A DNA stretch of 63,151 nucleotides, counting the filler, from Stramenopiles sp. TOSAG23-3 (taxonomy: Eukaryota), in assembly GCA_900128585.1 (NCBI GenBank). It is 6 parts of 6 records of this genome, joined end to end, with 100 filler letters (N's around TTAATTAATTAA, not from the genome) between each part and the next. Parts side by side here need not be neighbours in the genome. Positions count along the whole stretch, not along the records: positions 42,197 to 52,629 come from LT642818.1; 5 more parts are not named here. One strand, 5' to 3'. Both the position numbers and the translations under genes were made by a program. Of this stretch, positions 3,333 through 52,587 are shown one piece after another. A model generated the notes under the pieces. It saw only the letters and a list, made by a program, of their open reading frames with translations, was not told the origin of the DNA and did no database searches. Every line of letters begins with the position of its first letter. Positions within the stretch are counted from its first letter, which is position 1.

Positions 3333-6300
3333 TTACAGACTGTCGAATTGGGTGGGCAAAAGCCTTCGTTGAGGTGATACCCTCTTCTTCTTCTTTGTTG
3401 ACGAACGCGGGGGTGGACTTGGCTTTATCTTAGAACTGCTTTGCTGTCGGTTTGCAAAGACGCCCAGGGAGGACTTACTGTTCCCTTTCCTGAGCCTTAC
3501 CCCAGAGACGTACTTCTTTTCCAGCCCGTACGTGAGTCCAAGATTGTCCAAAAACGAACTTATTTCTTCCGGGTTGGTGGCCCCAGTGGACTGGAATTTG
3601 GGACTAGCAGCGCTGCTTGCCTTCATGGCCGCGCCCTCGTCCATGCCCTTTCCACTTTGAAGGCCATCAAAATCTATGAGATTCTCCCCAAACCCGGTGG
3701 CCAGTTCTAACTGCATTGTATGTCGTTCGTCCTCCAGCATTTTCTCGTACAGAGGCTCGTTCACTTGCGTTCGAGACCTTTTCTGGGGCAGAGGCGTCAA
3801 CGGTGCATTGGGCCAGTCTCTCGAACTCAGTTCGTACGAAAACCCTTCCTTGTAAGAGACTCGGGAGGAATTGCCGTGCCCTCTTGGCTCACCATCGCCA
3901 ATACCAAAGCCTGTTTTCCCCCGCATGCGCTTGCGAAGCTCAAGAATGTTTCCAAAGTCCAATCTCCCAAAAATTGCATGAACTCGTCGCCACGTGGCCG
4001 GGTACGCTTCCGCGTACGGTTCCATAACAGTGTCCGCAAGCTGCGCGAGGCATGCGGCAAACTCGTTCTGGAGCAGCACGCCTCTTCCCTTGTTCACGGA
4101 CGACACCATATTTACATTTCGGGCGTGTTGGTCGAATATTGCCATGCACTCCTCTGGTAGCAAACACAAGTCGCCAATGCGTCGACGGATACGCCTTGCT
4201 TTTGCTTTGTCCTCCCGCAGCAAACCAAAGTCGGCGCACAGGCGACGAAACATTATACGAGATACCCCAGAGTGCTCACAAGCAATCGCCTCAAATGTGG
4301 CGACGCCACGGCTTGCCCGGGCGGCGGTGTTGCCGGCGTTTGTTCTGGAATAGAAATTGAATATGTACTTTATGCCCGGTCGGTACCGTCGGATAATTTT
4401 GGACAGCATGACTCCGTCGTCCCTCCACAACGACTTTTCTTGGTTCTCGGCGACCTCTTGGGCGGCCAGAAAACTCTTCATTTCGTTCGATCCCCCGGAA
4501 ACATCCAGTGCGCTTGTATCCAAGGACACGAACGAGTCCCAGTCCTGTCCGGACGCAGTGTCATCCCATGTGCTGGTCCCGGTGCCCGTGGTCCTATTCG
4601 CTTTCTTGTTTACATACGTTGCTTGCGTTCCAGCGTTTGCAACAACAACACACGGGACGTTGTACCGAGTGTACACGCCCTCTTCGTCGGCCTCGTTTAC
4701 TTCCTCAAAATCTTCGCGCGCTTGCAACGAGTACTCTAGTGCGGCTTCCGTTTCTTTGGCTTTGTCTTTCTCCCGTGCTACCGCGACTGCCTTTGCCGCT
4801 TCTTCCCTGTTCTCCTGCGCCCAGCTTTCTCGAACGTTGTCCATGTACGTCTTAAACTCATCGAAGGAGATGAGACCACTTTGGTCCGTGTCCATCTCCC
4901 GGAACATGTCTAATTCGGCACTGTCGGCCGCGTCCATGGAGCCTTTGTAGCCCCACTCGGCCGCTTTCTTTTCAAAGCCTTTGTGGAACTCCTCCATGGA
5001 CAATTGCCCATCTTGGTCTAAGTCTAACTCGCGAAACATGATTTCGAATTCGTCGGACCTCTTGCTAAATTCGGTTACGGATGCCCGGCGGCGGCGTGCC
5101 GCAATTTCCTTCCGGCGCTTCTTCACCCCAACCCCACCGTGGCTCGTAATGCAATTGTAAAACTCGTCGCTGTTCATGACACTTTTTCCCTTTCCATCCT
5201 TGCGGGGAAAGTCCTCCCGAGCCAAGTGCTCCACCGTATCTGCAGGCTCTATCTGCTCTTGCAGCGCAATGATTTCGTCGGGCAAGGGGTCCGCCTTCCA
5301 GCGACGAATGCGGCCCACAAAATCTTTGACGGGAAAGTCCCGGTCGTACGGCAAAATGTTCATTATCTCTTCCCCCACGGTTGGGGCACTTGCAGCGTTT
5401 ACTAGGGCGGTTATCAAAGCATCGAAGCGGACCTGTCGGTTCAATTCCTTCCGGTTTTCCGCGTCTTTGCGGACGTTCCGGCCCCTCTGAATGGCTTGAA
5501 TCTTTGCGGCCGCCTCTTCTTTTTCCTTTTGGTACTGCCGTTCCTGGCGGCCACGGATCAGGGCTTGAATCTTCGCCGCGGCCTCTTCGTCCGCGGGCGG
5601 TGCGCCCATTACGTCCTTTATGTTCTTCCAGATTGTATCGAACGAATCCATGTTTGGGTCCGATACGCTTACGCGTCGAAACGCAGAAATCTCGTTGCCC
5701 TCGTCGTCCACCGCGCGGTTGTTAAAGACTTCCTCCACATTTTCCATGTTCGACTGGAACGCATCCATGGTGTGTAAAACCTCTGCTTCGGCGTCTTTTG
5801 GGCGCTTCTCCAGGCGTGCGGCGACGTCGCTGTTCTCGGCTGGGCTATAATCTACGTGGTAGAGAATTTTGGTTTCAGGGTCAATTCTGCGCCCCTTGCT
5901 TCGTTCCACAACTTCGTTGTCGTCCAGGTCTAAAACAAGCATTGCGGAGACGGGAACGCCCGAGTCAAATATCGCGTTTGCCTGTTTCTTTGTTCGGGGA
6001 AACCCTGCAACGACGTAACCGTTCGCAATGGCATCGCCTTGTTTTACCCTGTCGATGACCAATTTAATGGTCAAATCTTCTGGCACGGAGCGGTCCGCGT
6101 CAAGCAGCCTTTTTAACTCAAAGCCTTCTTGGGACCCAGACTCTATTTCGCTGGAATACATCGCGTCCAGAGTTAGAGGAAGAATCCCGTATTCTTCTTC
6201 AAAACGTTTTGTGATCATTTTCTTTCCAGACATGGGCGGCCCGACCAGCATAAACTGGGGCTTTGGTTTCTCTTTTCGCTTCAACACGATGCGAGGTTCG

Positions 6301-6608
6301 CCATTCGGCTGCTCCGGCTGTGCCTCGGGCTCGGGCTTAGGGTCGGCCTCGGGCTCGGGCTTAGGGTCAGCCTCGGGCTCGGGCTCAGGGTCAGCCTCGG
6401 GCTCGGGCTCGGGCTCAGGGTCAGCCTCGGGCTCTGGTTCTTCTTCAGTAGCAGCTGTTTCATCTGCCATTTTTTCCGCAGTGTCTGTGCTTTCGTCCGC
6501 TGTGTTTTCTTGGCTATCCTCTGCCTGTGGGAAACTGCTTTCGCCTAAAGTGACTTCGTCTCCTTGCCCCTGTACGACGTCCTCTTCCAATTGTTTGTCG
6601 GCTTCCAT
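3333..6608 (-). CDS. Adenylate-kinase-like domain + 2 IQ motifs + EF-hands; probable flagellar/Ca2+-regulated protein
   Basis: P-loop GPPMSGKK, GYVVAGFPRT, LID GRRIDPETKILYH. IQ motifs IQALIRGRQER and IQAIQRGRNVR. EF loops DLDQDGQLSMEEF and DTDQSGLISFDEF. N-terminal PE-rich repeat. Confidence 0.85.
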   Translation of the reverse strand: MEADKQLEEDVVQGQGDEVTLGESSFPQAEDSQENTADESTDTAEKMADETAATEEEPEPEADPEPEPEPEADPEPEPEADPKPEPEADPKPEPEAQPEQPNGEPRIVLKRKEKPKPQFMLVGPPMSGKKMITKRFEEEYGILPLTLDAMYSSEIESGSQEGFELKRLLDADRSVPEDLTIKLVIDRVKQGDAIANGYVVAGFPRTKKQANAIFDSGVPVSAMLVLDLDDNEVVERSKGRRIDPETKILYHVDYSPAENSDVAARLEKRPKDAEAEVLHTMDAFQSNMENVEEVFNNRAVDDEGNEISAFRRVSVSDPNMDSFDTIWKNIKDVMGAPPADEEAAAKIQALIRGRQERQYQKEKEEAAAKIQAIQRGRNVRKDAENRKELNRQVRFDALITALVNAASAPTVGEEIMNILPYDRDFPVKDFVGRIRRWKADPLPDEIIALQEQIEPADTVEHLAREDFPRKDGKGKSVMNSDEFYNCITSHGGVGVKKRRKEIAARRRRASVTEFSKRSDEFEIMFRELDLDQDGQLSMEEFHKGFEKKAAEWGYKGSMDAADSAELDMFREMDTDQSGLISFDEFKTYMDNVRESWAQENREEAAKAVAVAREKDKAKETEAALEYSLQAREDFEEVNEADEEGVYTRYNVPCVVVANAGTQATYVNKKANRTTGTGTSTWDDTASGQDWDSFVSLDTSALDVSGGSNEMKSFLAAQEVAENQEKSLWRDDGVMLSKIIRRYRPGIKYIFNFYSRTNAGNTAARASRGVATFEAIACEHSGVSRIMFRRLCADFGLLREDKAKARRIRRRIGDLCLLPEECMAIFDQHARNVNMVSSVNKGRGVLLQNEFAACLAQLADTVMEPYAEAYPATWRRVHAIFGRLDFGNILELRKRMRGKTGFGIGDGEPRGHGNSSRVSYKEGFSYELSSRDWPNAPLTPLPQKRSRTQVNEPLYEKMLEDERHTMQLELATGFGENLIDFDGLQSGKGMDEGAAMKASSAASPKFQSTGATNPEEISSFLDNLGLTYGLEKKYVSGVRLRKGNSKSSLGVFANRQQSSSKIKPSPPPRSSTKKKKRVSPQRRLLPTQFDSL
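6322..6437 (-). repeat. Coding minisatellite encoding (PE)nAD repeats
   Basis: Repeated ctcggg hexamers grouped in 24-30 bp units, encoding PEPEADPEPEPEPEADP... Confidence 0.85.
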
Positions 6609-35377: not shown

Positions 35378-38300
35378 CTACGTGCCCTCTTCTCCAACAG
35401 GCTGCTTCTCCAACATGCGGTAACTTATTGCCATGCCTGCCACACCACTGAGCGTGCGCTGAACGTACATGTCGCTGTTGATCCCACTCAATGCGGCGTG
35501 TGCGACTGCCTGCAAAAATTTATTTGTCAGGTGCCCCTCGGCGCCAGCTATGATCTTTCGGGGGTGTACTTCCAGGGATGTATTGTAGAAATGGTTCACC
35601 GTGGTTATGGCTTTCAACAAGATCATCATCTTCCATCTCCATCGCTCTACTCCTTTTTTTTCTTTCAATGTCAAAGGGTTCATTTCATCTCCGTTGTACA
35701 GACCGTCGAAAAAGTTCGTTTCCTGATTGACTGCCAGAATAATATCATGCAGGTACCGAAACGGCGGCCGCTTAAGGAGCTTCTCTTCCAAGGGCAGATT
35801 CTGGATGATCTTTCCTAAGAGCTCTTTGGTATCCTCCCATTTCCCTGTGAGCTCTGGCATCGCGTTTGCTGGGGGCACCTGGGGGTGTACAACAGCCATT
35901 TTAGTGTTGGGATTTTCATCTGCTGCGTTCGCAGATCTAGATAAATTTAGAATAAGCCGCAAACGGGGCAAAACCTTTTGAAATCTATTTTTCTCTTTCT
36001 TCCGAATGTTTAAAAGTCTTTTTCGCGCCAAATAAAATGCAGCAAACCCAGCAATTATACTAGCAAAAATGACGAAAATTTGCATAAATATCATAAAAAT
36101 GCCGACTAGCTGAATTTCGTCATTGGAAGGGCTGGACATAATAATAAGTATGGACAAAAAGTTGATTACAGTGGCACTGAAGGATGTCTGAGCCAGCCAA
36201 AATACAACTTTATTTCGTTGTGGTTCAAACAAATTTAAAGTAATCAGTGCAGTTATACACACTAGTATGGAGACAATTGCTTGCATCAATGGTTGGTCTT
36301 GTAAATATATCACTGCACCTGTAAGAATGGTCTTACGAACGATTTCGTGCACTTCCCAAAATTCGCTGCCCCGTCTAAATCGTTCGTACAAGAAGCCAAT
36401 TTTTTGCTTTGTCCGGACAGTGTGTAACTCTTTCCGGTAAATCCAAATATACACTGACAAAAAGAACGGAAGTCCAATGCTGAATGCAAACAAAACCAAT
36501 AGCACAATTGGATACGTCGACACGTAATTTTTGGAAATATTGCACTCTAGAGACATATCCTTCTTTAAAAAATTACGGCCAGCCACGTTCTTGCAGTTAA
36601 AGTACTGAAAAACCATGCGAGTAACAGGAGTGTGGATTAATATAAATAGTTGTATGGTGAAAGACAACGATCTACTCGTCGATTTGTGCCGAATGTGCCA
36701 TTTTACGACCGTTAGCTCGTTTATATGGACCAAATCAGATTGTAATACCTTCACAAATTCGTTTTCATACAAACCTGTCGCTTCACAATTTAATTTTTTG
36801 AAAATGGCTTTTGCTTCCTCAATACTGTACTTTGTACTTCCCAACGCCCTCACTACGCGCCGGAACTGCTTTTGGTTTATGCACCCTTTTTGTTCTTCAT
36901 CGATTAAATAAAATATTCGGCGCAGAATGTCTTCGAAGTGCATATGCTTTTCTATGTTTGACATTCCTTTCAATTTACGTTGCCCCTTCCTTGTGCCAAG
37001 ACAATACCACAACAAGCCGATAACAATTGCCATAATAGGCCAAGATGCAGTCGCCACAAATCGGCTCGAAAAGTCTACACCCTTAATACATGTTGCTCCT
37101 GTCATGGACAACAGATCAACATTGACGAATTGAAAATGCTGCAAAAACTTGGTGAAGTTCTCTGGCCATGTTATTTCGAAAATAGAAGGGAGACTACTAT
37201 TAATCTGAAGAAAGTCCACATTAATTTTCATAATACGAAGGATATCACGCCACAATGATTTGTATTTCAATATTTTCTTTTTCAAGTAATAAAGCGCGTA
37301 GAGAGATAAAGATGCCACAAAAAGGGCAACGACAAACAGGTAGATAGGAGACGCATCATTGCAACTGACACAATCGTCCATTTGTGGACCATAACCTGGG
37401 GCGCAAAGTTCGCATAAAACCCCAGTCCTTTTCCCACGACAGCCTTCCGCGAGACAATTGGCTGGAGTAGTACATTTTACAAAAGCATTTTCAAACGAGG
37501 GTTCCCAGGGCGCACGCCAGTAACCGTCGATGGGTTTCATCCACAGTGCAGCTTTGTTTCTATGCCCAGTTTTGTTTGGCATGACACAAGATGCTCCCTC
37601 AGGGCATACAATACATTTTGATAAGATCATCGCTGTCGAATCAAAAATAGGGTAAAAATCATTTTTGCATATACACGCGGCAAAACTGTGTGATCCAGAA
37701 ACACCTCGCGTATCTGAATTTGCTATGTGAGAATCACAATTTTGGCACTCTGACAAAAATGCCGACCCTAATTGTGTGCCTACGGTATCAGGCACGCACG
37801 GATCACAGACCAGCTGCCCAGGTTTTTCTTGGTAACTCCCTTGTTCGCACAACGTACATTCTTCCTGACCGTCGAGGGCGTTGTATTGCCCTTGAAGACA
37901 TTCGAGACAGTCTACAAACGCGGTTGCCCCAATATTTGGTCCGTATCTTCCTGGAATACAGCTTTGACAGACACCATCTTTTGTTAAACTAAATCTACCT
38001 TTGTTGCATCCTCTGCTGTTTACTGATACACGCATTGATATAAATGCCATGTCCTTATACTTTTCATCAACAGAAGTACCACTGTGATAAATTTCACAAC
38101 TTCCGCTTGGTGCAAATTTTGGAAATTCCTCTCCATCATCTTTCGCCTTGATCACAATTTCTTGCTTTTGGTCAAAATTCGACACTGTAAACAGTAAATT
38201 GCCCCCTGCTTCTACAGAACACCGGCTACTTGAAGAGACTGCAATCGTGACCGTTTCGGATTGTGGAGCATCGGAGAGAGAAACCTCATAACTGTAGGTT

Positions 38301-41300
38301 TCCTCCTCAAGCAAGCTTAGATCTTGCGTGAGGACTCCAGTCAAGTGGGGCTTAGACGTGTCAATATCCCCTGCAATAAATATTCGAAGTGCCGAACTGC
38401 GTTGACTGTGCAGTTCTGGTACCCCCAACAGCTTGCGAAGAACCGATACATACGCGAACCCGCCATATCCGCCACCACTATAAATGCATGTAAAATTGTT
38501 ATTGGAAAACAAGAGTTCGTCTTCAATTGTGCAAAGATCTACCACCCCGCCGGATTTTTCAAATTCTACTCTGACTGCTGCAGCATCAGTTCCGAAGTTA
38601 TTTCCATAAACAACAACAGGTCCCGTTTCTACTGGAATTATGCTGGGGGTTACGGATATTATGTTTGGAAAAGCATAATTAAACTCAACGTATTCTACTT
38701 TTGTGTGTGGGAAACGAAGGACATTGGGCTGCCCTTCAGTAAACAGTCGCAGTTGCATGTTTTGCCCGTGGCCGTGTGGAAACACCAAGCTTGCGTTCTG
38801 ATCCAATTGCGAAAAACCTTTCCCCCTGCTTCCGTATCTTGACGATAGTGAGGGTGTTATGTAACCAATAATTAAACGGGTGGGAAAGTCAATGCAATCA
38901 TCTACATTTTTCAAGTCTGTTACCACAATGTTATCAGTAGCAGCATTGGCACGCGAGATGCTTAACGATAGTGCTATAGAGTTGGCAGAGAGATCGATTG
39001 CGCATTTCGGTGCATAAAATATTGGAAGTTCTTCCTTTAAAACCTGGCAAGAATCGCACGAAAATGTGTACGGTCTGTTCAAATTTACAGACACCGTCGT
39101 TGCAAAAACTCTCGAGTTAGACTTCATGTCTATTGCTGCCGACTGTGCCAGGATGCTATCGTCTGGGTTACTTTTCTCCACAGAAACTTGGTCCAGTGTA
39201 AGTTCTGAGTTCTCTGCACCATACACAACTCCGCCTTCCAATGCAGTGTTTAAAGTCATATTACACCCGCGAAAAGCAGCTTTATTTTCTACTCCCCCCA
39301 TGTGCAATACCCCACCTTTCGAAGTACCTGTATTTCTGTTAAAATGGCACTGCAGTAAGCTTACAGAGGATCTTCCATCCATATTAATCGCACCGCCCCA
39401 CTCACTTGCACTATTATTTTCAAAGAGAGTATTGAACGCTTCAAAATTAGTTGAGTCGTCTAAATAGACTGCCGCACCCGATCGTGCAGAACAATCAGAA
39501 ATACTAGTATTGTTTATGCTAAATCTACTGTACTGTGATCCATACATTAAACCTCCAAAATAACCATTTGACGAAACAAAAAATCCATTGTGTGCAGTGA
39601 ACAATGCTTCATTGGTGGCATATATTGAGCCTCCAAACGCACCGTCGGCATGGTCAGAAAGCATATCGAATGCAACTGTACGTGCAAGATCCTTCAGGGC
39701 TATATCACCCCCACCTCCTTCAGCAAAATTGTACGAGAATGTTACTGCAGTCAAGGTGAGTGTACCACTTTCTTGTGAAAACAAAACCCCGCCATTGCCT
39801 AAATTTTTGGCCACATTGTTCCTAAAGACAGAATTCTTTATACTAATACGATTATCGCTTGTAAAAATAACCCCACCGTTTCCATTTGCAGAGTTAAAAG
39901 AGCCCTGTATATTTTCAAAGTTTCCTGTGGTTTCACTACCTACCATTGAAAATACGCCACCAGCTGCTGCTGTGTTGCTCGCAAACTGAGAATTCTTTAT
40001 CTCAGCATGCAACCGACCATTGCCTTCAGAGATTATATAGATTGGGCTCTGTGAAGTTATTTCACCATTATTTGAAACGATGGAGTCTTCCATGGTGAGA
40101 CTACTTGACCTCACCTTTGCGATTATTTTGATTGTGCTGCTTCCGTGTTTACCATTTTTGTCAAAGGTGTTATTTATCAGAGATATGTCGACATCTTCAG
40201 CATACAAGGCCTGCGGGTTATCCTTCCACAAACACGTGTTGCATTCCACAGTCCCATAACTAGGGTAAACATGAAGGCCCGGAAGAGTAGCTCCGTTGTT
40301 AATAAGGATGTCTTTCATTAGAAGATACGACGAATTTAGTTTCATGAAGGCCATCGATTCTCCAAATAATGAAGATATTTTTGCATTCACGGAGACAAGC
40401 TTGTGCTGGTTGTGGTAAATCGTTGCATTATTAAATGTTACTGAACTGTTTACCAGTTTCAAAAATGTCCCCGGCTGCTTTAAATGAATCTCTGTTGCGT
40501 CAAAGACTAGATTATGGTACAGCCATACAGTTATAGTTTTCGCATTGCAAACACAGTTCTTAAATCGAAGAATAATATCATTTGCGGGATTGCTCTGCAG
40601 GGTTGAAAGAGAAAGTTCAAAAGAGTGCACTTCAAAACCGCTAATGTTTGCATGTATCCCCTTCCGGACCAGAGAAGAATTGGACCCGGTTGCATTTTCA
40701 AAATAAACAGGTGCATGAAGCGTTGACCACTGAAGTTGTACTCTATCAAAATGAAGCGACTCATCGAGTGTGTACAAAGTGCAGTTTTGCTCAAAATACG
40801 GATATTGGTCCTTAGAGTAATCACATGCTGATTTAAACGTCCCCCTCTCGTAATTTGAGTACAATGCAATCTCTTGTATAAGCACATCGACAAAACGGGC
40901 ATGACTGTGCAAGATATCAATCGTTAATGTGTACGAAAACGATTTTATAACAACGTGTTTAAAAGTGATATGAGATGCATTTTTTGCAAGGATAGCGGAG
41001 GAGGTGGAAGATGCGGCAATTGTCATATTTTGTAATTTCACGATAGCATGGTACAAATATAGACTTTTCCCTACTGAAAAGAGGGTTACATTTGCTCCTT
41101 GTCCACTCACATTCAGTATTTTGTCAGAAACCGTTAGCGTAGTTGCAAGATGATGTTGTTCGCTGCCGTATAATTGTATGGGCAAGCATACAGTCATTGT
41201 GTGGCATGCAACTTGAACAGCGCGCTCTATTGTAGCAAACGGCTCGTTCAGATTCGCAACTTTGCTTGTATCGTTCGCATTTGGTTGAGAAGAAACAACG

Positions 41301-42094
41301 ACATTTCGAAGCAAACAGTCATAATTGTCGTAAAAACACCTCAAATTGTCGCATTCATGGTTGCACACTCCGTTGCCCAGCAACGTTTCAGAGCAAGACC
41401 CCATTTCAGGCGTTAATGCCAACGCATTGCATCTCGCAGGTGTGTACCGAAAGAGTGTACTCGGAGCATAGTGCATCGATTCGTTTCTTACGTCAATATC
41501 TCTAAACGTTAACGTTACCTCCAACAATGACGGCTCAACAAAGCTGTCCATATCAAACGTGGAATCAAACATGCACCACCAGTGGGAGTAGTTTCCATTT
41601 GTATTATTTATAGTTGCATTCATGCTTACTCCCTCACTAAGCCAGCACTTTGGCGTGTACGGCAGCGACACATTTGGGTGGATATTCTTTACTGCAAATG
41701 ACACAAATATTTGGCCTTTCGTGGTCGTCCCTTTCCAAATAGAGGTAAAGTTGCATATAGCGATGGCATTTCCTGTTCCCAAAAATTTAACGCCAAGAAC
41801 GTCTTCGCAGTTTTTTCTCACAACCAACATGCTACCTGGTTGCAATACCATAGAAGTGGCATTAGCGACAATCCCATCTAAATGGTACAATTTTCCTGCT
41901 CTCAACGATACCTCTTGTAAGGGTAATATTGATAAGACTCCGTTTAACTGTAGTTCATCACCATACGGTAAATATAACGAACTAATGCCATATATCGATG
42001 CTTTTTCTTGCAGCAACAGAATCTTGACTCCCTCGGTACCCTCTTTGCCACCCGATGCGCCATTGGCACCATTTAACTCTATGATAATATTTAG
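35378..42094 (-). CDS. Giant multi-pass membrane protein (LNR, beta-helix/Pmp-like repeats, IPT-like, Cys-rich ephrin-receptor-like repeats, multi-TM with EF-hands, C-terminal IFT54/TRAF3IP1 CH domain); 5'-truncated
   Basis: LNR LGNGVCNHECDNLRCFYDNYDC. Many N.A..GG(A/V)I repeats. C..G.Y..C..C repeats. TM motifs KINVDFLQI..WP and GFLYERF..FWEVHEIVRK. CH motif EKLLKRPPFRYLHDII. The frame stays open to the scaffold end. Confidence 0.85.
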   Translation of the reverse strand, partial: LNIIIELNGANGASGGKEGTEGVKILLLQEKASIYGISSLYLPYGDELQLNGVLSILPLQEVSLRAGKLYHLDGIVANATSMVLQPGSMLVVRKNCEDVLGVKFLGTGNAIAICNFTSIWKGTTTKGQIFVSFAVKNIHPNVSLPYTPKCWLSEGVSMNATINNTNGNYSHWWCMFDSTFDMDSFVEPSLLEVTLTFRDIDVRNESMHYAPSTLFRYTPARCNALALTPEMGSCSETLLGNGVCNHECDNLRCFYDNYDCLLRNVVVSSQPNANDTSKVANLNEPFATIERAVQVACHTMTVCLPIQLYGSEQHHLATTLTVSDKILNVSGQGANVTLFSVGKSLYLYHAIVKLQNMTIAASSTSSAILAKNASHITFKHVVIKSFSYTLTIDILHSHARFVDVLIQEIALYSNYERGTFKSACDYSKDQYPYFEQNCTLYTLDESLHFDRVQLQWSTLHAPVYFENATGSNSSLVRKGIHANISGFEVHSFELSLSTLQSNPANDIILRFKNCVCNAKTITVWLYHNLVFDATEIHLKQPGTFLKLVNSSVTFNNATIYHNQHKLVSVNAKISSLFGESMAFMKLNSSYLLMKDILINNGATLPGLHVYPSYGTVECNTCLWKDNPQALYAEDVDISLINNTFDKNGKHGSSTIKIIAKVRSSSLTMEDSIVSNNGEITSQSPIYIISEGNGRLHAEIKNSQFASNTAAAGGVFSMVGSETTGNFENIQGSFNSANGNGGVIFTSDNRISIKNSVFRNNVAKNLGNGGVLFSQESGTLTLTAVTFSYNFAEGGGGDIALKDLARTVAFDMLSDHADGAFGGSIYATNEALFTAHNGFFVSSNGYFGGLMYGSQYSRFSINNTSISDCSARSGAAVYLDDSTNFEAFNTLFENNSASEWGGAINMDGRSSVSLLQCHFNRNTGTSKGGVLHMGGVENKAAFRGCNMTLNTALEGGVVYGAENSELTLDQVSVEKSNPDDSILAQSAAIDMKSNSRVFATTVSVNLNRPYTFSCDSCQVLKEELPIFYAPKCAIDLSANSIALSLSISRANAATDNIVVTDLKNVDDCIDFPTRLIIGYITPSLSSRYGSRGKGFSQLDQNASLVFPHGHGQNMQLRLFTEGQPNVLRFPHTKVEYVEFNYAFPNIISVTPSIIPVETGPVVVYGNNFGTDAAAVRVEFEKSGGVVDLCTIEDELLFSNNNFTCIYSGGGYGGFAYVSVLRKLLGVPELHSQRSSALRIFIAGDIDTSKPHLTGVLTQDLSLLEEETYSYEVSLSDAPQSETVTIAVSSSSRCSVEAGGNLLFTVSNFDQKQEIVIKAKDDGEEFPKFAPSGSCEIYHSGTSVDEKYKDMAFISMRVSVNSRGCNKGRFSLTKDGVCQSCIPGRYGPNIGATAFVDCLECLQGQYNALDGQEECTLCEQGSYQEKPGQLVCDPCVPDTVGTQLGSAFLSECQNCDSHIANSDTRGVSGSHSFAACICKNDFYPIFDSTAMILSKCIVCPEGASCVMPNKTGHRNKAALWMKPIDGYWRAPWEPSFENAFVKCTTPANCLAEGCRGKRTGVLCELCAPGYGPQMDDCVSCNDASPIYLFVVALFVASLSLYALYYLKKKILKYKSLWRDILRIMKINVDFLQINSSLPSIFEITWPENFTKFLQHFQFVNVDLLSMTGATCIKGVDFSSRFVATASWPIMAIVIGLLWYCLGTRKGQRKLKGMSNIEKHMHFEDILRRIFYLIDEEQKGCINQKQFRRVVRALGSTKYSIEEAKAIFKKLNCEATGLYENEFVKVLQSDLVHINELTVVKWHIRHKSTSRSLSFTIQLFILIHTPVTRMVFQYFNCKNVAGRNFLKKDMSLECNISKNYVSTYPIVLLVLFAFSIGLPFFLSVYIWIYRKELHTVRTKQKIGFLYERFRRGSEFWEVHEIVRKTILTGAVIYLQDQPLMQAIVSILVCITALITLNLFEPQRNKVVFWLAQTSFSATVINFLSILIIMSSPSNDEIQLVGIFMIFMQIFVIFASIIAGFAAFYLARKRLLNIRKKEKNRFQKVLPRLRLILNLSRSANAADENPNTKMAVVHPQVPPANAMPELTGKWEDTKELLGKIIQNLPLEEKLLKRPPFRYLHDIILAVNQETNFFDGLYNGDEMNPLTLKEKKGVERWRWKMMILLKAITTVNHFYNTSLEVHPRKIIAGAEGHLTNKFLQAVAHAALSGINSDMYVQRTLSGVAGMAISYRMLEKQPVGEEGT

Positions 42095-45019: not shown

Positions 45020-46270
45020 TTAGTCGGCCTCTGCTTTGATCTTCTTCTTTGTTCGACTTTTCTTCTTCTTTGGGGATTTCTCCGAAACTTCTAATTTAAC
45101 CGATTCGTTCAGTTCAGTCTCAAGCTTCAGCTTCCTCTTCTTTGCCAGCTCTTTAGCCTTTTTAGCTTTGCCCTCTTTCCTCTCTTGCTTTCCCTTTACA
45201 ATTTCATCGACGACCTGCGGCGGCAAGTGGGGGTAAAACTGCTCGAGCTCCGCGGCAAAGAGGACACTGTGCGCCCAGCCGGCATGATCTCCGAAACAAT
45301 CGACGAACAGGTTGTTCACTCGCTCGTGTCGACCGGGGGTGCAGGTGACGTCCTTAAGCGTTGGATCGAAATCGCGGCATGCGATCTGCCAGACATGGGT
45401 GTCCACGGGGACGCAACTCGTTTGATCCAACGAGAACAAGGCTACGCAATCGGCGACTTTCGGGCCTACTCCTCTGAATTTGAGCAGCTCTCTTCTCACC
45501 GCCGCGTGGTCACAATCCCGCAGGCCATGAAGGAAATCTTTTCCAGCCGGTTCTGTCATCCCATTCAAAGATTGTGCAGTATGTACAATGGACTCGGCGC
45601 GGTAGCCAAAGCTATGCCCAGTTTCACGAAGGGGCATGGCCTCCGGCTTGTTCGTCTTGGGGTTGTAGGTTAGCGGTATATTTGCCAATGTTTCTATTGT
45701 TGGAAACGAGTAGCATTCAACCCCTGCAGTTTTGTCTTTCCACAAAAGATCCCCATACTTACTCCTTAAAAAGTCTAACATTTGCGTGATGCGAGGGATG
45801 TTGTTGCAGGAACTGCAAATAAAACTGAACAAGCACTCCACTGGATCTTGCCGAACGACGCGCATGCCAGGAAGGGCCTTCGCAATCGAACGAAACTTTT
45901 TATCGCTTCGCTCCCCCCACCTGGTGTACAATGATTCTAAGTTAACTGAAAGCTGGAAGTAGTCGTGGAGTGCCTCTTTGGCAGACCTAAGGCGCTCGCC
46001 TTCGCCCACACCGTGCGATCCTGAGGTGTTCGGCTCAGCAACAACTCGAAAGAAGACGTCGTCTTGCGTCTGTCGCAAAAGAAACACCCGATCGCCAAGG
46101 GCGCCATAAAATTGAGCATTTTTGCCCTCGTTCTCTGTGGGCCTAGGGTAACGCTTCCAGTTAAAGCTCTGCCCGTTCGTCAGCGTTACTCCGATCCTTA
46201 GCTCTGCTGGCTTGACGTTCAAACTGTGCCACTCCGGATTTAGAACCTTCTGGGCAATGCGACGACGCAT
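45020..46270 (-). CDS. OGG1: 8-oxoguanine DNA glycosylase/AP lyase
   Basis: LTNGQSFNW, RQDPVECLFSFICSSCNNIPRI, FGYRA, HhH-GPD motif GVGPKVADC...VPVDTHVWQIA and AGWAHSVLF. Confidence 0.96.
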   Translation of the reverse strand: MRRRIAQKVLNPEWHSLNVKPAELRIGVTLTNGQSFNWKRYPRPTENEGKNAQFYGALGDRVFLLRQTQDDVFFRVVAEPNTSGSHGVGEGERLRSAKEALHDYFQLSVNLESLYTRWGERSDKKFRSIAKALPGMRVVRQDPVECLFSFICSSCNNIPRITQMLDFLRSKYGDLLWKDKTAGVECYSFPTIETLANIPLTYNPKTNKPEAMPLRETGHSFGYRAESIVHTAQSLNGMTEPAGKDFLHGLRDCDHAAVRRELLKFRGVGPKVADCVALFSLDQTSCVPVDTHVWQIACRDFDPTLKDVTCTPGRHERVNNLFVDCFGDHAGWAHSVLFAAELEQFYPHLPPQVVDEIVKGKQERKEGKAKKAKELAKKRKLKLETELNESVKLEVSEKSPKKKKSRTKKKIKAEAD

Positions 46271-46854
46271 TTTAGGTAATTCTTGAAATTGCGCTGCTCA
46301 CAACGTTCAGCACAAATCCTCTAGCAAGATCGTCCGACGACGCAGGGTTCAATGAGCCGTCACTGCTTGCCAACTCCACACTTTGATCAAGCTTTTTTGC
46401 AGCAAGTATCTTTAGCCTTGCGGACGATAGCGGCGGTGTCGATTTTGCTTCCTTGGGAATAGTGTGTGTTTGCAAGGTAATCTTTTTCTCGTCCTTTTGC
46501 ATGGAACGATAGTAAGCGAAGTAAAATTTTGACAAAATATTCGTGAATTAACATCTATTGTGGGAGGAAACGAAGGTGGATACAAGTACCTGCAAGAACG
46601 CTGTCAAATTCTATGCCCTCTGCGTGCCGTCGAGGATTATATAAAAACTCAAAAAGAAGTGAGATTGATTACATGATTCAAGAGAATGATTGGGGGCAGG
46701 GGGGGGGGGGGTTTTTTTCCAGCATCATAGAAGAGGCCTAATATATATTCTTCTTAATTAGTCCTATAGGATGATATCCGAGTATGATTAATGATACAAA
46801 CGTACATTATAGTACATTACGTAACTTTTATAAAATAAATGGACGTCCACCTCC

Positions 46855-49800
46855 TTACAAAACAGTAGTAGTACTGTTCGTCTTGTCAGAACCAAGAGAT
46901 CTCAGGGAACTTTGACTGACCTTGCTACTTTCTGAAGAATTAATTGTGTCCCCTGAGTGTGCCATAGAACGCTTGCCTGCCAACTGCTGTTTCCAATTAC
47001 GTTTCTTCGCGTCGAAGTACCACTGGGTACACAAAATTCCAATTCGGCTTGAGACAGGGTAAACCTGCCCACTTTCCCTCGCCAAACGCAGCAGGTGTAA
47101 TTCGTTTTTGAAATGATCGGCATCGACTATGTTGAGATCGATTGGATCCGACTGTTCCCCTCCATCCACTTTTGAGTTTTTAAAGAGGCCTGCAGCTTCT
47201 TCCTTCTTGCGGGCGGCATTTTCTTCAAAGGCTTTGATCTGAAGGAACTGCGAGTATGCCCATGTTTCATTGGCCAGTTCTTTGACACTTTCATACCCCT
47301 CTGTCATGACAGCAATAATAAGGTTCAAAAGCATGATAACGCCGTAAAAAATTACAATCGCATGAAGCAAAGGACCCAAAACACTGTTTGATTGATGAGC
47401 ATCAGACCAGGGAAGTCCGTTTATTGTAACCCCTCCTAGCATTGTCATAAGCGATCTAAAAGGAGTCGAGTAGTCGTCCATCTCGACACCAAAGCCAACA
47501 ATACTCAAAACGCTGAATGCAACCATGTATACCAACAGAATAATGAAGTACGAAAATAGCTTGCTCAACTGCCTCGAAATAATAATAGTCATCCGCGCCA
47601 CTGCTGGAATCCAGTCCAGCAAATCCAGCAGCCGCAGACTTGCTACAAATAGTGTAACGGAACACATAGACGCATAAAATTCCATTGTCTTGTTCAAGTG
47701 ATACAACCTTGCTGGGAGCACATCGGCATGGCTCGAACCTTTCACGTCTCCCAGGGTTGTCTCTATCTGCAAGCGTACGATTATGACGGCAATAAGCAAA
47801 AGGCTTGAGAGCGATTTGACGGCCTTCCGCAAATTCGTGCACACTAGATAGATGCTCCGAGGAAACCTTCGGTTCGAGCAACACATGATGCAATGAGGTA
47901 CCTGGTCTTTCCGCAAACGCCATTTACCTTCATCTCCGTGGTTGATCCTGTAGAAGCCCGCACCGTACGTTCCATTCGGACGCCAACAGAACTTATACGG
48001 CTTCGCGTTTGCCGCTGTTGGCTGGTAGAAAAAGAACTCACGCCGTTCCCCGACGTCCTTCAACACGTACGTCTTTTTCGCCGTTGCGGACCAGCTTTGC
48101 ATGTATTCGGATTTTATCAAATCCACGGACGTGAGACAAAACACAACAAGAAATAAGATGTCGCATACCAAGGAGAATGTCGTGTTTTGTTGCCTCCAGA
48201 CTTGGACCTCGTATGATGGAATAATCGCCCCGGCGGAAAAAAACTCAACTGAGAAAGTTTGAGAGGCAACCAAACCCTCCTGAACGTTCGATACAACAAA
48301 TTCGACAAAAACCACCCTTGTGCTGAGATCTATCCACTGGTCTCTCTCTAACCGCTGCAACAACATCAGGGCTTCTGTCAGATTGTTGGGAAAGAGAACA
48401 GAGTGCCCTGATCCTGGATAAAACATAGTTCCTTGGCTGCCCAGAACGCTGGGCACATCCGATGCCTCCCACTTGTAAGCGTCACCTGTCAAACCGACAA
48501 AAGTTTCTTTACTCTCCGTCTCTGTCGAATATTGAGGGAAACAGCAAGCCTTCGCTTCAGATTCGTTTCCACCTTTTCTCTCGAACGAGGCTTCGGGGTA
48601 CGTGCCACGAACGGCCTCGTTCTCTCCCGAAGGACACGATTGGCAGGCAACTCGAAGTTGGCGCAACCGGAGGCGCCCGACCATTTTAATGTGCCGCACC
48701 ACCGGCAAGTAATCCCCCGTGTTGTACGGTTCCAAAGGGCTCCCTGCTTGAACTGGTCGTTCGTAAAACAATCCTGTGTCATGAATTCCCCCGAGGACGG
48801 CTATTTTCATAAAATTGAAAAAATCTTGGCGCGTGTCTGTGTCCATAAACCGCTTGTTTGGCTGCTCAGAAAAGTCGTAAGGCTTTCCCAAATACCTAGC
48901 GACTATTGCATGGTGCAACAAGTGCGAGGTTTGGTCGTTCAACCCAAGGCGCACAATAGTCGACAAGAAAAAGAGTACAAACAGGATGAACCATCTTACA
49001 AATTGTCGCACCCGTGGCCATTTTGCAACCTCATTCCATTTCATTTCTACCGCTTTCTGAGTACGAGCGTAACCCCAAATGTGGTCTTTCCACCCATGCG
49101 GCCTCTCCGCTGACCCAATCAGTTTCGGCCTCACTTTTTCCAGCCATTCTCTCTTGCTAATGTCGTCAAACGGTTCCACGCCGCTGTTGCTGGTCGCCTC
49201 CAAATCTGCATTGTTTGCAAGCAGGTAATGTACGACGTCGTTTTGAACAGTTCGCCGACGACGAACGTCCTCCGCTGTTGCCGACAATGACTCGGACACA
49301 AAACCGACAAAATGCTTGTCCCATTGCATAATGTTTTCCCTAATTTTCTTGGCTAACGGATCGACTGGTATTGGAGAGTGCTGACCAGCTGGGGTAGCCA
49401 AGCACTCTACTACCATTTGGTCCAAATTGCCGTCGTCGTCAAGTTTTTTACACTCTGTCCACCCGCCTATCAGCTGTTCGTTAAACCACACTTCCGGTAC
49501 AGTCGTGCCTGCCATCGAGGCGTGCCGATGAGGGTATTGCTCCAAGTCAACGTTGTGGAACTTCACATTCTTCTTTAAAAAGAGATCTTTCGCCCTGCTG
49601 CAGAATGTGCACCCTGGGAGAGTGTATATTAGAATCTGTCCTCCAAACAGGCACGAGTGACTTGAGCTGCTCTTTCTCCGAACCGTCTCCCCTGGCTTGG
49701 TTGTTGACCGCTGCCGTTTTCCAGTGATCAGCTGGACGCGTTTCCACCGTCTCCAGAACTTTGAGATCAATTTTGCACACTCTACATACTGCTTCATGGT

Positions 49801-52206
49801 GTGTGAATCCTTGTAAGCTTCAAACGCGTAATGCAAGGCGCTCTTCCCATAGTAATCTCTTTTGTTAATGTGGGCCCCTCCGGCAACAAGCGCGACTGCA
49901 GTACTCAGTGAGTACGCATATTTGCAAGCCATCATCAACGGCGACCATCCCGTCTCGTTGACGGCCGTGGCAGCAGCATCGTTTATCAGAAGAATGTTCA
50001 CGATGTCAACATGTCCCATCTTTGCCGCGTAGTGAAGTGCAGTGTTGCCATCGCTATCGCGCGCGCCCACCGGGGCACCGGCTTGCATTAGCAACTTTAC
50101 AAGCTTGGTATTTTCGTTACTCATACCACACACCAAATGCAGGGCCGTGCACCCCTTCGTCAGACCTTCTCGCGCCAGATATTTGCGACCTTTGACCCTC
50201 AAGCCAAGGTTAACAACCCTTGAACCTCTCTGAAATAAGTTTGCCTTCACTGTAGAGACGTGTTCTTTTACCTTCAGCAGCCGGTCGACTATGCCGATGT
50301 TTTGCTCTTTGCAAGCAATCATCATTGCATTGATGCCATCATGGCTCTGTGCATTCAAGTTAACGTCAGTGTGAAACACGGCCCTTGCCTGGACTGGATC
50401 GGTAAGAACCCCAACGTCGTCCTTGGACCAGCCTTGTGCATAACTCAGCAGCCAGTCAACAACTTCGGCGTCGCCCCAAGCGCATGCGTACATTAGTGCC
50501 GTCCAACCGTTTGCGTCTCTTACGTTTGGGGCAGGCACAAACACTCGATATCCATTTTTGTCCCGATACTGGTTCTGCAATAGTTCCCGGCAGACCGGTT
50601 TGTTCCGCTTTACAACGGCAAAGAGCAAGCTCGTTATCACTTGAGTGCCGAATTTTCGAGAGAAGCTTCCTTGGGGCGCAAACGGGTGACGATTTTTTAC
50701 TACGACCTGAATTGGCAGGTCTATCTGCCTCCACCCAGATGGTATCCGCTGTTCCTCTTTCTCTTGCTCCAATGTTGCAATGTTCGTAACCAAGCGATAA
50801 ACGTTTGCTTCGCCGATCCAGTTGTCCATAATTTTCTTCACGTGGAGCGGCAGGTTAGTGTTCGATTCGGCGCCCTTTTGCCTACAAATTCCGATCATAT
50901 GTGACGCGCACGCTTCCGCAAGAGACCTTAAGTAGGGGGCTGGTACAAACCGCGCCAAAGGGTTGGTTCGGTCGGTCTCTTCTTTGCTTTCTGGGCCCGA
51001 ATCATTTTTCGGTGCCGATGCGTGCTTTTGCTTCAACGAAGTTGCGTTCTTGCTCCTGCGGAGGCTAAGCTGTCGTTTCGGGGCACTGGACTTCACAAAC
51101 ACCGAGAAGAATGATGAAATGGCACCAATGCCCCTGGCTTCTGCTTTCTCAGCGTCGTCTTTACGGGCCGAACCATTTTCTTCCTCGTCTTCCATCTCCC
51201 GGAGTTTCTTAGCTTTTCCTGCGGTGATGTGTTTCCTCAAATGCCCGTAAATGTTTTCAAAATATTCGATCGGTGGGAACGCAAAGCCCGTCAGAAAGGA
51301 CTGCAAGTACTCTTTCAAGTGGCCCATTCGTTGGTCTCGCACATCCAGCTCGCTCGTTCGCTCGTCCCATTTGACGTACTGGCCCAAAAACCGGCCACAG
51401 GTTTCTTGTTCTATGGAAAATAAACGAAGAACTTCTTCCGCCTCTGTCAGCAGGCTTGACCCCGCGCCTTCTCCCGATGTTGCGTCCTTCATGAGCTGCT
51501 CGTCGACAACCTCCATCCCGCTGTCAATCCTTTTCCTCATTTCCGTGGTCTCGACGCGCTGATTTTCTGCCTTCAAACTTTGTATTAGAAACTGTGCATA
51601 CGTCGGGGGTTTGGTTCGAGGGGCCTGAAACGCGCATTTTAGCTGAAAGAGCATCCACATTGCCAAGGGGATTCGCCCGTGGTACTTTTCAATCATTGGG
51701 TTGAACGCTTCGTAGTGCACATCCCGGACGGACTCGTACGTGGCACCACCGACGAGGGCTTTCACCATCGCTCCGAAAATGGCTGTTTGGGTAGTGGAAC
51801 AGTGGCACCCTATGCTGATGCTGCAGTGCGCGTCGTTTTTAACCCCTGCTGGGTCGTAACTCCTCTCTGCTGGGATGAAAATCTGGCTGCTGTAGCCATC
51901 TTCCTCGAAGGAAATTTTGTAGAACCCAATATAGTTCATGCCCTCGACGAGTCTTGGCAACGGCTCGTAGGTGCACTCGGTTGGCGGCGGCACCTGCCGC
52001 AGCAGGATGCTCTCTCTAAGCCGGGTCGAAGATACGTTCGTTTAGTTGTACGCCACCCCAGATTCCATAAAATCGATCTTCATTTCATACTCTCCCGGCG
52101 CGCCTTCCTTCTCGACAACATGGTACAAGTTCGGGACGGAGTCATGGTCAAGGTCCAGGGCCCCTTTTAAACCGTCTGGGCGAAACGGTACTGGCGTCTC
52201 CGACAT
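46855..52206 (-). CDS. Ankyrin-repeat + glutaredoxin + polycystin-2 (TRPP)-type cation channel; the 5' part 52206-52045 is separated by an in-frame TAA or a 36-nt intron
   Basis: Ankyrins GWTALMYAC, GNTALHYAA, GWSPLMMAC. Grx IYTLPGCTFCSRAK...TVPEVWFNEQLIGG. PKD2 motifs LRLRQLRV, YPGSG, WIDLSTRVVFVEF and LLNLIIAVMTEGY. The main ORF is 46855-51993. Confidence 0.88.
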
Positions 52207-52587
52207 TCCCCCTCGTTTCTTCTGTCCTGACTTCAACGTTTGTTTGTCGTTTGTTTAAACAATGACACCAATCTAGTTCTTTTCACCATGTTTCCATTCG
52301 TAATTATTTATTCGTACGTAATATTTTATACCAACACACAACACACACAAACATGCACACATTCAAACAAATACAAACACAAAACACATTCTCAAAATAA
52401 TTGCCCTCCCCGGCGCCTCCTGCCTTATTTATTATACAGGTACGTACTATTAAGATATAATAATATCGCCGGTGCTTCTAATATTTTTTATTTGAAATTT
52501 TTTTAATTTAAATTTTAAAAGAAGAAGAGCTACAGTAATAATAAGAAGGAGTAACAAAACTATATTTAATTAGTAGACTAAGATCAG

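Follow-up and report, generated by a model that had tools for sequence, protein, structure and literature searches.

Control of TRP (transient receptor potential) channels by redox state is known to us only through separate enzymes or through direct oxidation of the cysteines of the channel. A gene from the protist Stramenopiles sp. TOSAG23-3 (assembly GCA_900128585.1) raises the question of whether a redox enzyme can be part of the channel polypeptide itself. The gene lies on the minus strand of a stretch of 63,151 nucleotides, here called the window, in which an earlier note, made from the sequence alone, had pointed out an uninterrupted open reading frame (ORF) at 46855-51993 and had proposed a redox-gated cation channel. 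The frame is indeed open for 1712 codons, and its product, P0001, contains an ankyrin array, a glutaredoxin (Grx) and a polycystin-type channel. We consider it very probable that a single gene encodes, in this order, an N-terminal domain of unknown fold, the ankyrin array, the glutaredoxin, a linker and a six-helix channel of the PKD2 type. For this anatomy jointly with a glutathione-dependent thiol switch by which the glutaredoxin would act in cis on the channel, our estimate is a probability of about 0.5.

Domain anatomy of the gene

The product was scanned against Pfam with curated cut-offs, and residue numbers below are those of P0001 unless otherwise stated. Ankyrin matches (Ank_2, 113.2 bits; Ank, 103 bits) cover stretches over residues 495-725 and are followed by Glutaredoxin (PF00462) at 787-842 (38.1 bits, cut-off 22.9). 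Polycystin_dom (PF20519) lies at 1099-1264 (62.5 bits, cut-off 23.6) and PKD_channel (PF08016) at 1430-1570 (59.9 bits, cut-off 22.4), and Ion_trans scored 35.2 bits. The three domains expected from the earlier note thus stand in one protein, each above its Pfam cut-off, and the short motifs RQLRV, WIDLSTR and LLNLIIAV were all found in it, as was CAKLISKFWRRWKR. The same scan gave no Pfam domain in the C-terminal tail (1564-1712).

The glutaredoxin stretch alone matched solved glutaredoxins in the PDB with E = 9e-12, and its CTFC, at exactly the expected position (49600-49611), lies opposite their CPYC. Together with the Pfam score, this match identifies a real CxxC glutaredoxin. The alignment with the CPYC glutaredoxins 2khp and 2klx is free of gaps from the first strand (beta-1) to the active site. 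Class-I glutaredoxins have a short loop before the active site, without the five-residue extension of the CGFS type (PMC7351949, in the part available to us), and in the PDB alignment the window domain has this short loop.

The channel part resembles polycystins. Hydropathy analysis by the Kyte-Doolittle scale, a crude method, gave six peaks, S1 (998-1016), S2 (1275-1293), S3 (1392-1410), S4 (1441-1462), S5 (1483-1501) and S6 (1545-1563), with the polycystin (TOP) domain at 1099-1264 between the S1 and S2 peaks. Human PKD2 chains in the PDB match the protein with E values of ~1e-13 to 1e-20 (~1e-13 for the S4-S6 part). The assignment to the PKD2 type is therefore well founded on the PKD_channel score, the placement of the TOP domain and the six peaks. 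A channel of the TRPA, TRPV, TRPC or TRPN subfamilies was also considered and was rejected because the channel part matches PKD2 and PKD2L1; the only ankyrin-TRP channel among the PDB matches, NOMPC (5vkq), covers residues 594-724, that is, ankyrin repeats only.

The features of the gene are listed below; "clade" refers to the glutaredoxin-bearing relatives described in the next section.

46855..52206, minus strand: full coding region by comparison with the orthologues; 1783 codons and a final TAA, a single exon, one in-frame TAA
52042..52044, minus strand: in-frame TAA at codon 55; Glu in P0003 and P0002, inside a GVAYxE motif
50554..52206, minus strand: N-terminal domain of unknown fold, ~550 residues; found in the clade only; invariant motifs include SYDPAG..D.H and YHGRIPL.MWML
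49804..50526, minus strand: ankyrin array of ~5-6 repeats, residues 490-730; Pfam Ank_2 and Ank, PDB ankyrin matches
49738..49779, minus strand: basic amphipathic stretch CAKLISKFWRRWKR, the "IQ-like helix" of the earlier note; loosely conserved, the orthologues differ here
49399..49644, minus strand: dithiol glutaredoxin of class-I type, residues 784-865; Pfam 38.1 bits, PDB glutaredoxins E = 9e-12
49600-49611, 49489-49503 and 49459-49470, minus strand: glutaredoxin sites CTFC, TVP and GG, respectively; C864 is the third invariant Cys
49003..49398, minus strand: cytosolic pre-S1 linker, residues 866-997; common to ankyrin-PKD relatives that have no glutaredoxin
48946..49002, minus strand: transmembrane segment S1, residues 998-1016; hydropathy peak 2.07
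48172..48945, minus strand: polycystin/TOP domain, extracellular, from the S1-S2 interval; Pfam Polycystin_dom; invariant Cys 1117, 1120 and 1151
47305..48171, minus strand: S2 to S6 with the pore; hydropathy, Pfam PKD_channel and Ion_trans, PKD2 alignment
47413..47442, minus strand: pore-helix and filter stretch MLGGVTINGL; PKD2 alignment
46858..47304, minus strand: cytosolic C-terminal tail, residues 1564-1712; conserved stretch FK..L...SS.I..L..WY

The basic stretch had been read as part of a calmodulin sensor. We do not retain this view: P0001 has no match to Pfam IQ (PF00612) at E <= 0.1, and the stretch is poorly conserved. The identical Pfam library detected IQ in two neighbouring gene products of the window.

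The N-terminal domain of the window sequence has no Pfam match at E <= 10. The word-indexed protein search described below (relatives of 534-1701 aa) gave no relative of this domain, which is ~480-550 residues long, outside the clade, and the ESM Atlas gave nothing beyond ankyrin-like leads below 0.9. A match of the domain family profile to PDIA3 was not significant (E = 0.2). Residues 69-129 (window 51489-51993, minus strand) are similar to the part of molluscan hemocyanin units around CuB (ALVGG...NP..YH...W). We rejected the identification of the domain as a type-3 copper protein (hemocyanin or tyrosinase): instead of His, the protein has G and K at two of the three CuB ligand positions, the whole-chain E values (7e-6 and 7.9e-13) are sums of 5-12-bit matches to repeated units, a single-unit chain gave E = 0.48, and the family profile matched no hemocyanin at E <= 10.

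Relatives, origin and limits of the gene

A word-indexed search that covered 5.8 billion proteins gave 108 matches, five of which (P0002, P0003, P0004, P0005 and P0006) have the same Pfam set as P0001, the other 103 being essentially ankyrin proteins. The relatives range from close to distant: P0002 (1780 aa) is 84% identical to the window protein, P0004 (2035 aa) 40%, P0006 (1969 aa) 35% and P0005 (1714 aa) 32%. In a separate Pfam scan, each of these four contained Ank, Glutaredoxin (35.7-43.2 bits), Polycystin_dom and PKD_channel, with scores over the respective cut-offs. On the DNA level, a metagenome contig of 7104 nt (L001, 31% identity) has ankyrin repeats and glutaredoxin in a first ORF and Polycystin_dom and PKD_channel in a second ORF on the same strand. 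The frame changes over ~80 nt (L001 4220-4300) within the region that codes for the TOP domain, with no residues lost relative to P0005, and this gap is probably a short spliceosomal intron, unlike the situation in the intronless window gene. P0113 is a fragment that is 97% identical to L001 and has the same glutaredoxin domain, and a second locus, L002, is a fragment of the N-terminal domain of a further clade member. These two loci were the family among the 80 loci kept in the metagenome contig scan, the remaining 78 having matched just one of the two peptide patterns used, through ankyrin repeats alone. The clade members are environmental sequences that have no entry in NCBI or UniRef.

The window apparently derives from an environmental or draft assembly, in which a gene for a glutaredoxin/ankyrin protein might have been joined to a channel gene by mistake. 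Such a chimera is very unlikely, as the frame is open for 5.1 kb and five independent sequences, namely the four full-length relatives (32-84% identity) and the DNA contig, have the identical domain order. We also queried an index of sequencing runs with sampled words of the 5.8-kb stretch 46600-52400. At this index level, 14 of the 24 runs listed contained at least half of the sampled words, and 20, from 14 studies, contained part of the stretch. Six of the listed runs are RNA, with word shares of 0.18-0.27, from which we draw no conclusion about expression or habitat.

Within the glutaredoxin, C795, C798, P833, G843, G844 and C864 are invariant in the five full-length sequences, at an overall identity of 31-40%, and the CxxC is also kept in P0113. 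The cis-Pro motif is TVP in three of the six members compared, T/S-T-P in two and R-V-P in P0113. The active sites of the six are CTFC, CIFC, CNFC, CSYC (P0005), CNFC and CEYC, none with Pro at position 2. In P0006 (residues ~812-923) and in L001/P0113, an extra insert lies upstream of the CxxC glutaredoxin and gives weak partial matches to the glutaredoxin hidden Markov model (HMM); it looks like a second, degenerate glutaredoxin that has no CxxC.

To place the clade among other channels, residues 730-1712 were used as the query of a HMMER search of 1.84 billion representatives, which gave 1708 matches at E <= 0.001, with 150 listed. We scanned 32 of those listed with Pfam (top-ranked matches, long ones and the few that matched the glutaredoxin part; not a random sample). 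Ankyrin repeats together with Polycystin_dom and/or PKD_channel were found in 18 of the 32, three were animal-type PKD1-like proteins with REJ/PLAT/GPS, and a glutaredoxin was found in one, P0113. The earlier note had regarded ankyrin repeats on a PKD channel as exceptional. Since more than half of the scanned relatives carry both, including UniRef100_A0A7S2S7E1 (P0121) from the labyrinthulomycete Mucochytrium quahogii, the combination is ordinary among the relatives and was already present in public databases, in channels that are uncharacterised.

The scanned relatives have further N-terminal modules, including SH3, WD40, EF-hand, PX/EH/DUF389, kinase, LRR and SPRY. Individual proteins (P0120, P0198, P0210, P0122 and P0127) show varied modules, such as DUF389 with EH and PX, a protein kinase, a multi-propeller WD40 and EF-hand pairs. 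Judged by their domain content, the ankyrin-PKD relatives form an extensive modular radiation among polycystin-type channels that has so far gone undescribed.

The rarity of the glutaredoxin-channel combination, in contrast to that of the ankyrin repeats, was borne out: the combination is confined to one small clade of environmental sequences. When the clade glutaredoxin HMM was run over 334 proteins, including the 150 representatives, the domain was limited to clade members and to P0209 (Grx-DEP-DUF547), P0222 and P0238, which are non-channel glutaredoxins. Among the proteins compared, the glutaredoxin and the N-terminal domain are the only clade-specific parts. A full-text literature search found no report of a fusion of glutaredoxin with a polycystin or a TRP channel; the supplements of PMC7399828 and PMC4820453 may list other architectures.

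In a quick FastTree analysis of 129 channel regions, the glutaredoxin-bearing rows formed one starred clade (100), which also holds P0110, a C-terminal fragment. This clade was nested in a starred group of 40 rows (96) with ankyrin-PKD proteins, and the PKD1-like rows were in the other half of the tree. The simplest history would be that a glutaredoxin was inserted once into an ankyrin-PKD channel, behind the ankyrin array and ahead of the conserved pre-S1 linker. The linker is shared more widely, as the matches of P0115, P0119, P0121 and P0127 from the representative library start at query positions 167-190, corresponding to residues ~897-920 in the linker. In P0127, a pair of EF-hands occupies the interval between the ankyrin array and S1, which suggests that this interval is a slot for sensor modules.

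The earlier note gave a range extending to 52206. The range holds, as it includes the true start codon, identified as the ATG at 52206 by translation and by comparison with the N-termini of the orthologues; the note was unaware both of this codon and of an in-frame TAA. Upstream of the ORF, 71 codons align collinearly with the N-terminal parts of P0002 and P0003, and thus the true coding region is taken to be 46855-52206. The alignment of the window protein with its orthologues shows no gaps that point to introns.

The TAA (codon 55) stands in place of a Glu codon of the GVAYxE motif that is kept in P0002, P0003, P0004, P0005 and P0006. P0003, a fragment of 972 residues from another assembly, differs from the window at only five of the 972 aligned residues, one of which is the TAA/Glu position; the other four differences are Q283R, W427R, L628M and A967V (full-length numbering). 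The window copy may be a recent null allele, may contain a single-base error or may be translated from a later Met. If the TAA marks a true nonsense allele, be it a recent pseudogene or a null in the heterozygous state, the window copy yields no full-length protein and our finding describes the family. The conserved Glu and the near-identity of P0003 apart from the TAA make this a serious possibility, although not the likelier one. The other 1712 codons contain no stop, and their identity to P0003 across the shared part is 99.5%, which indicates that an inactivation would be very recent or that the TAA is an assembly error. Moreover, one G-to-T change is enough to create the TAA, and a later Met (VEGMNY) could initiate a protein that is short by ~89 residues.

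Candidate mechanism and the divergent pore

We propose that the locus encodes one subunit of a six-helix channel of the PKD2/TRPP type in a marine plastid-bearing protist. By the topology of TRP channels, the glutaredoxin and everything else N-terminal of S1 would face the cytosol. The tethered glutaredoxin would bind glutathione and act in cis, catalysing (de)glutathionylation or disulfide exchange on cytosolic cysteines of its own channel, for which the invariant C65, C561 and C864 are candidates, and the glutathione redox potential would thereby set the gating of the channel. That glutathionylation can gate a TRP channel is shown by Yvc1p of yeast, for which the sections of PMC5170613 available to us describe activation when specific cysteines are glutathionylated and reversal by a thioredoxin, the enzymes being separate in that case.

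Several points weigh against this proposal. The window copy has the premature TAA at codon 55, the target cysteines C65, C561 and C864 are guesses, and only seven clade members are known, so the conservation rests on a shallow sample. The residue three positions before the first active-site Cys is Leu in P0001 and P0002 and Gln in P0004, and is basic (R, R and K) in P0005, P0006 and P0113; the solved glutaredoxin 2khp has Arg here, and a basic residue at this position has a role in glutathione binding. Finally, the pore is non-canonical, with I-N-G opposite L-G-D of human PKD2 and G1521 opposite the Arg that is the partner of the Asp.

The absence of the basic residue from the window protein also speaks for an alternative, in which the glutaredoxin serves other substrates, as a tethered enzyme or a docking module, or is a purely structural spacer with a thioredoxin fold, and does not control the pore, the gating being due to something else, such as the ankyrin array or the N-terminal domain. 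Because the relatives bear many unrelated N-terminal modules, the fusion alone is no proof of control over gating, and the nearest free glutaredoxin relatives occur in signalling-type fusions, such as P0209. We nevertheless regard this alternative as rather unlikely. Both Cys, the cis-Pro and the GG are invariant at 31-40% identity, which argues for retained thiol chemistry, and every member has the glutaredoxin at the same place, beside the pre-S1 linker.

The active sites raise another alternative, in which a [2Fe-2S] cluster, with the first active-site Cys and glutathione as ligands as it has in human glutaredoxin 2, bridges pairs of glutaredoxins in a tetrameric channel; if the cluster were lost, through oxidative stress or a shortage of iron or glutathione, the domains would be freed and gating would change. 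In the available portion of PMC7351949, the absence of the active-site prolyl is the major determinant of [2Fe-2S] ligation, and glutaredoxins with C(S/G)YC hold the cluster in a dimer. Pro is absent from position 2 in all six clade active sites, that of P0005 is exactly CSYC, human glutaredoxin 2 chains are among the PDB matches (E ~1e-7), and a tetrameric channel would be expected to bring the glutaredoxin domains near each other. However, Ser is found at position 2 in only one of the six members (T, I, N, N and E in the others), the second Cys is invariant although the first alone suffices for ligation, and the best PDB matches are CPYC oxidoreductases. An iron-sulfur sensor is thus an unlikely reading. 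More speculative, and improbable, is the fuller picture of an iron- and oxidant-sensing channel in which the loss of [2Fe-2S] from paired proline-less glutaredoxins would open or close an I-N-G pore with a selectivity unlike that of any characterised polycystin. Such a channel, if it exists, would provide marine phytoplankton with a new sensory modality.

The pore itself bears on which ion the channel may conduct. The pattern [LIY]GG.T..[NQ]G is found in all clade members of the pore alignment, and the G-D is kept in most relatives, P0121 included. According to the portion of PMC6056229 at hand, L-G-D is the core of the PKD2 filter, with an R-D salt bridge, and the D523N replacement lowers the Ca2+ permeability of PKD2L1 18-fold. 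With L-G-D replaced by I-N-G, the conducted ion cannot be named, and in view of the effect of D523N, conduction of Ca2+ cannot be assumed. Permeation of Ca2+ through the window channel is therefore uncertain, and the corresponding part of the earlier note does not stand, the Arg partner being also replaced by Gly. The suggested ciliary location has nothing in its favour except that a different gene of the window encodes a MIP-T3 (IFT54-like) domain.

The S2-S3 loop (residues 1294-1391; window 47821-48114, minus strand) is cytosolic and unusually long, ~100 residues, with an invariant G.YG.G.Y motif. It also contains a cysteine cluster, CIMCC, in the window protein, which is not conserved in the distant orthologues.

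Neighbouring genes and known systems

The window derives from an intron-poor eukaryote and contains plastid-type (MGDG-synthase-like) and endomembrane genes. The best named match of the MGDG-synthase-like neighbour is the bolidophyte Triparma columacea, with 44% identity, which is too weak for assignment to a lineage. The gene immediately downstream of the channel gene (45020-46270, minus strand) encodes a protein like 8-oxoguanine DNA glycosylase (OGG_N, 85.7 bits), which belongs to the repair of oxidative damage; its position beside a channel with a redox domain is, in a eukaryote, probably a coincidence. An ORF of 2212 codons (35378-42016, minus strand) joins LNR (Notch) and ephrin-receptor-like cysteine-rich modules to a C-terminal MIP-T3/IFT54 CH-like domain and is either an unusual architecture or two separate genes read as one. 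A further ORF of 1091 codons (3333-6608, minus strand) has an adenylate kinase, EF-hands and an IQ motif, and its product is a kinase of several domains, a type that occurs among flagellar proteins.

As a near-identical sequence is indexed in numerous runs from marine metagenomes, the protein may be of importance to the sensing of light, oxidant or iron stress by a common marine protist. The fusion would offer a simple system in which to study how the redox potential of the glutathione pool, or else an Fe-S cluster, is converted into ion flux. In the PKD channels of protists, the stretch from the ankyrin array to S1 may serve as a slot for sensor modules, filled by a glutaredoxin in the clade and by an EF-hand pair in a relative, and the divergent pore broadens the range of polycystin filters that are worth recording.

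Compared with the animal TRPP channels polycystin-2 and PKD2L1, the window protein likewise has a PKD_channel domain, a TOP domain between S1 and S2 and six hydrophobic segments, and its S5-pore-S6 part is alignable with that of polycystin-2 (E ~1e-13). It differs from polycystin-2 in having ~1000 cytosolic residues before S1, which comprise the N-terminal domain, the ankyrin array and the glutaredoxin, in showing no C-terminal EF-hand in the Pfam scan, and in having I-N-G and Gly for L-G-D and its Arg partner. The ankyrin-PKD channels of the P0121 type, as in M. quahogii, are closer: they fall in the same starred group and share the ankyrin array, the pre-S1 linker, the TOP domain and the PKD channel. 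However, they have neither the glutaredoxin nor the clade N-terminal domain, and P0121, like most other relatives in the pore alignment, keeps a G-D motif that the glutaredoxin clade does not have.

Lineage-specific fusions of PKD channels have a precedent within the stramenopiles in PKDRR of oomycetes, a PKD channel with tandem RyR domains, as described in the parts of PMC7399828 and PMC4820453 accessible to us. The fused module of PKDRR is a pair of RyR domains near the C-terminus and not a redox enzyme, and glutaredoxin is mentioned in neither paper, the term being absent from PMC7399828. In Yvc1p (TRPY1) of the yeast vacuole, the glutathionylation of cytosolic cysteines sets the activity, as we propose here; the enzymes Gtt1p and Trx2p are separate and act in trans (PMC5170613, same sections), and Yvc1p does not belong to the PKD channels. 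Among glutaredoxins, human glutaredoxin 2 (CSYC) and other class-I glutaredoxins that lack the Pro are similar to the clade domain, as far as the source at hand describes them, in having a CxxC without Pro and a short loop, and the CSYC is that of P0005. Human glutaredoxin 2 is free and soluble, whereas the clade glutaredoxin is built into a subunit of a membrane channel, and its cluster binding is hypothetical.

A fused or docked redox enzyme can make its partner follow a defined redox couple, as in the engineered probe Grx1-roGFP2 and in the Kv-beta subunit of Kv channels. The former is man-made and the latter is a separate NADPH-binding subunit, so that neither is a natural polypeptide of a glutaredoxin and a channel. 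A channel that has a glutaredoxin built into it would be a natural counterpart of the engineered glutaredoxin-fused probes.

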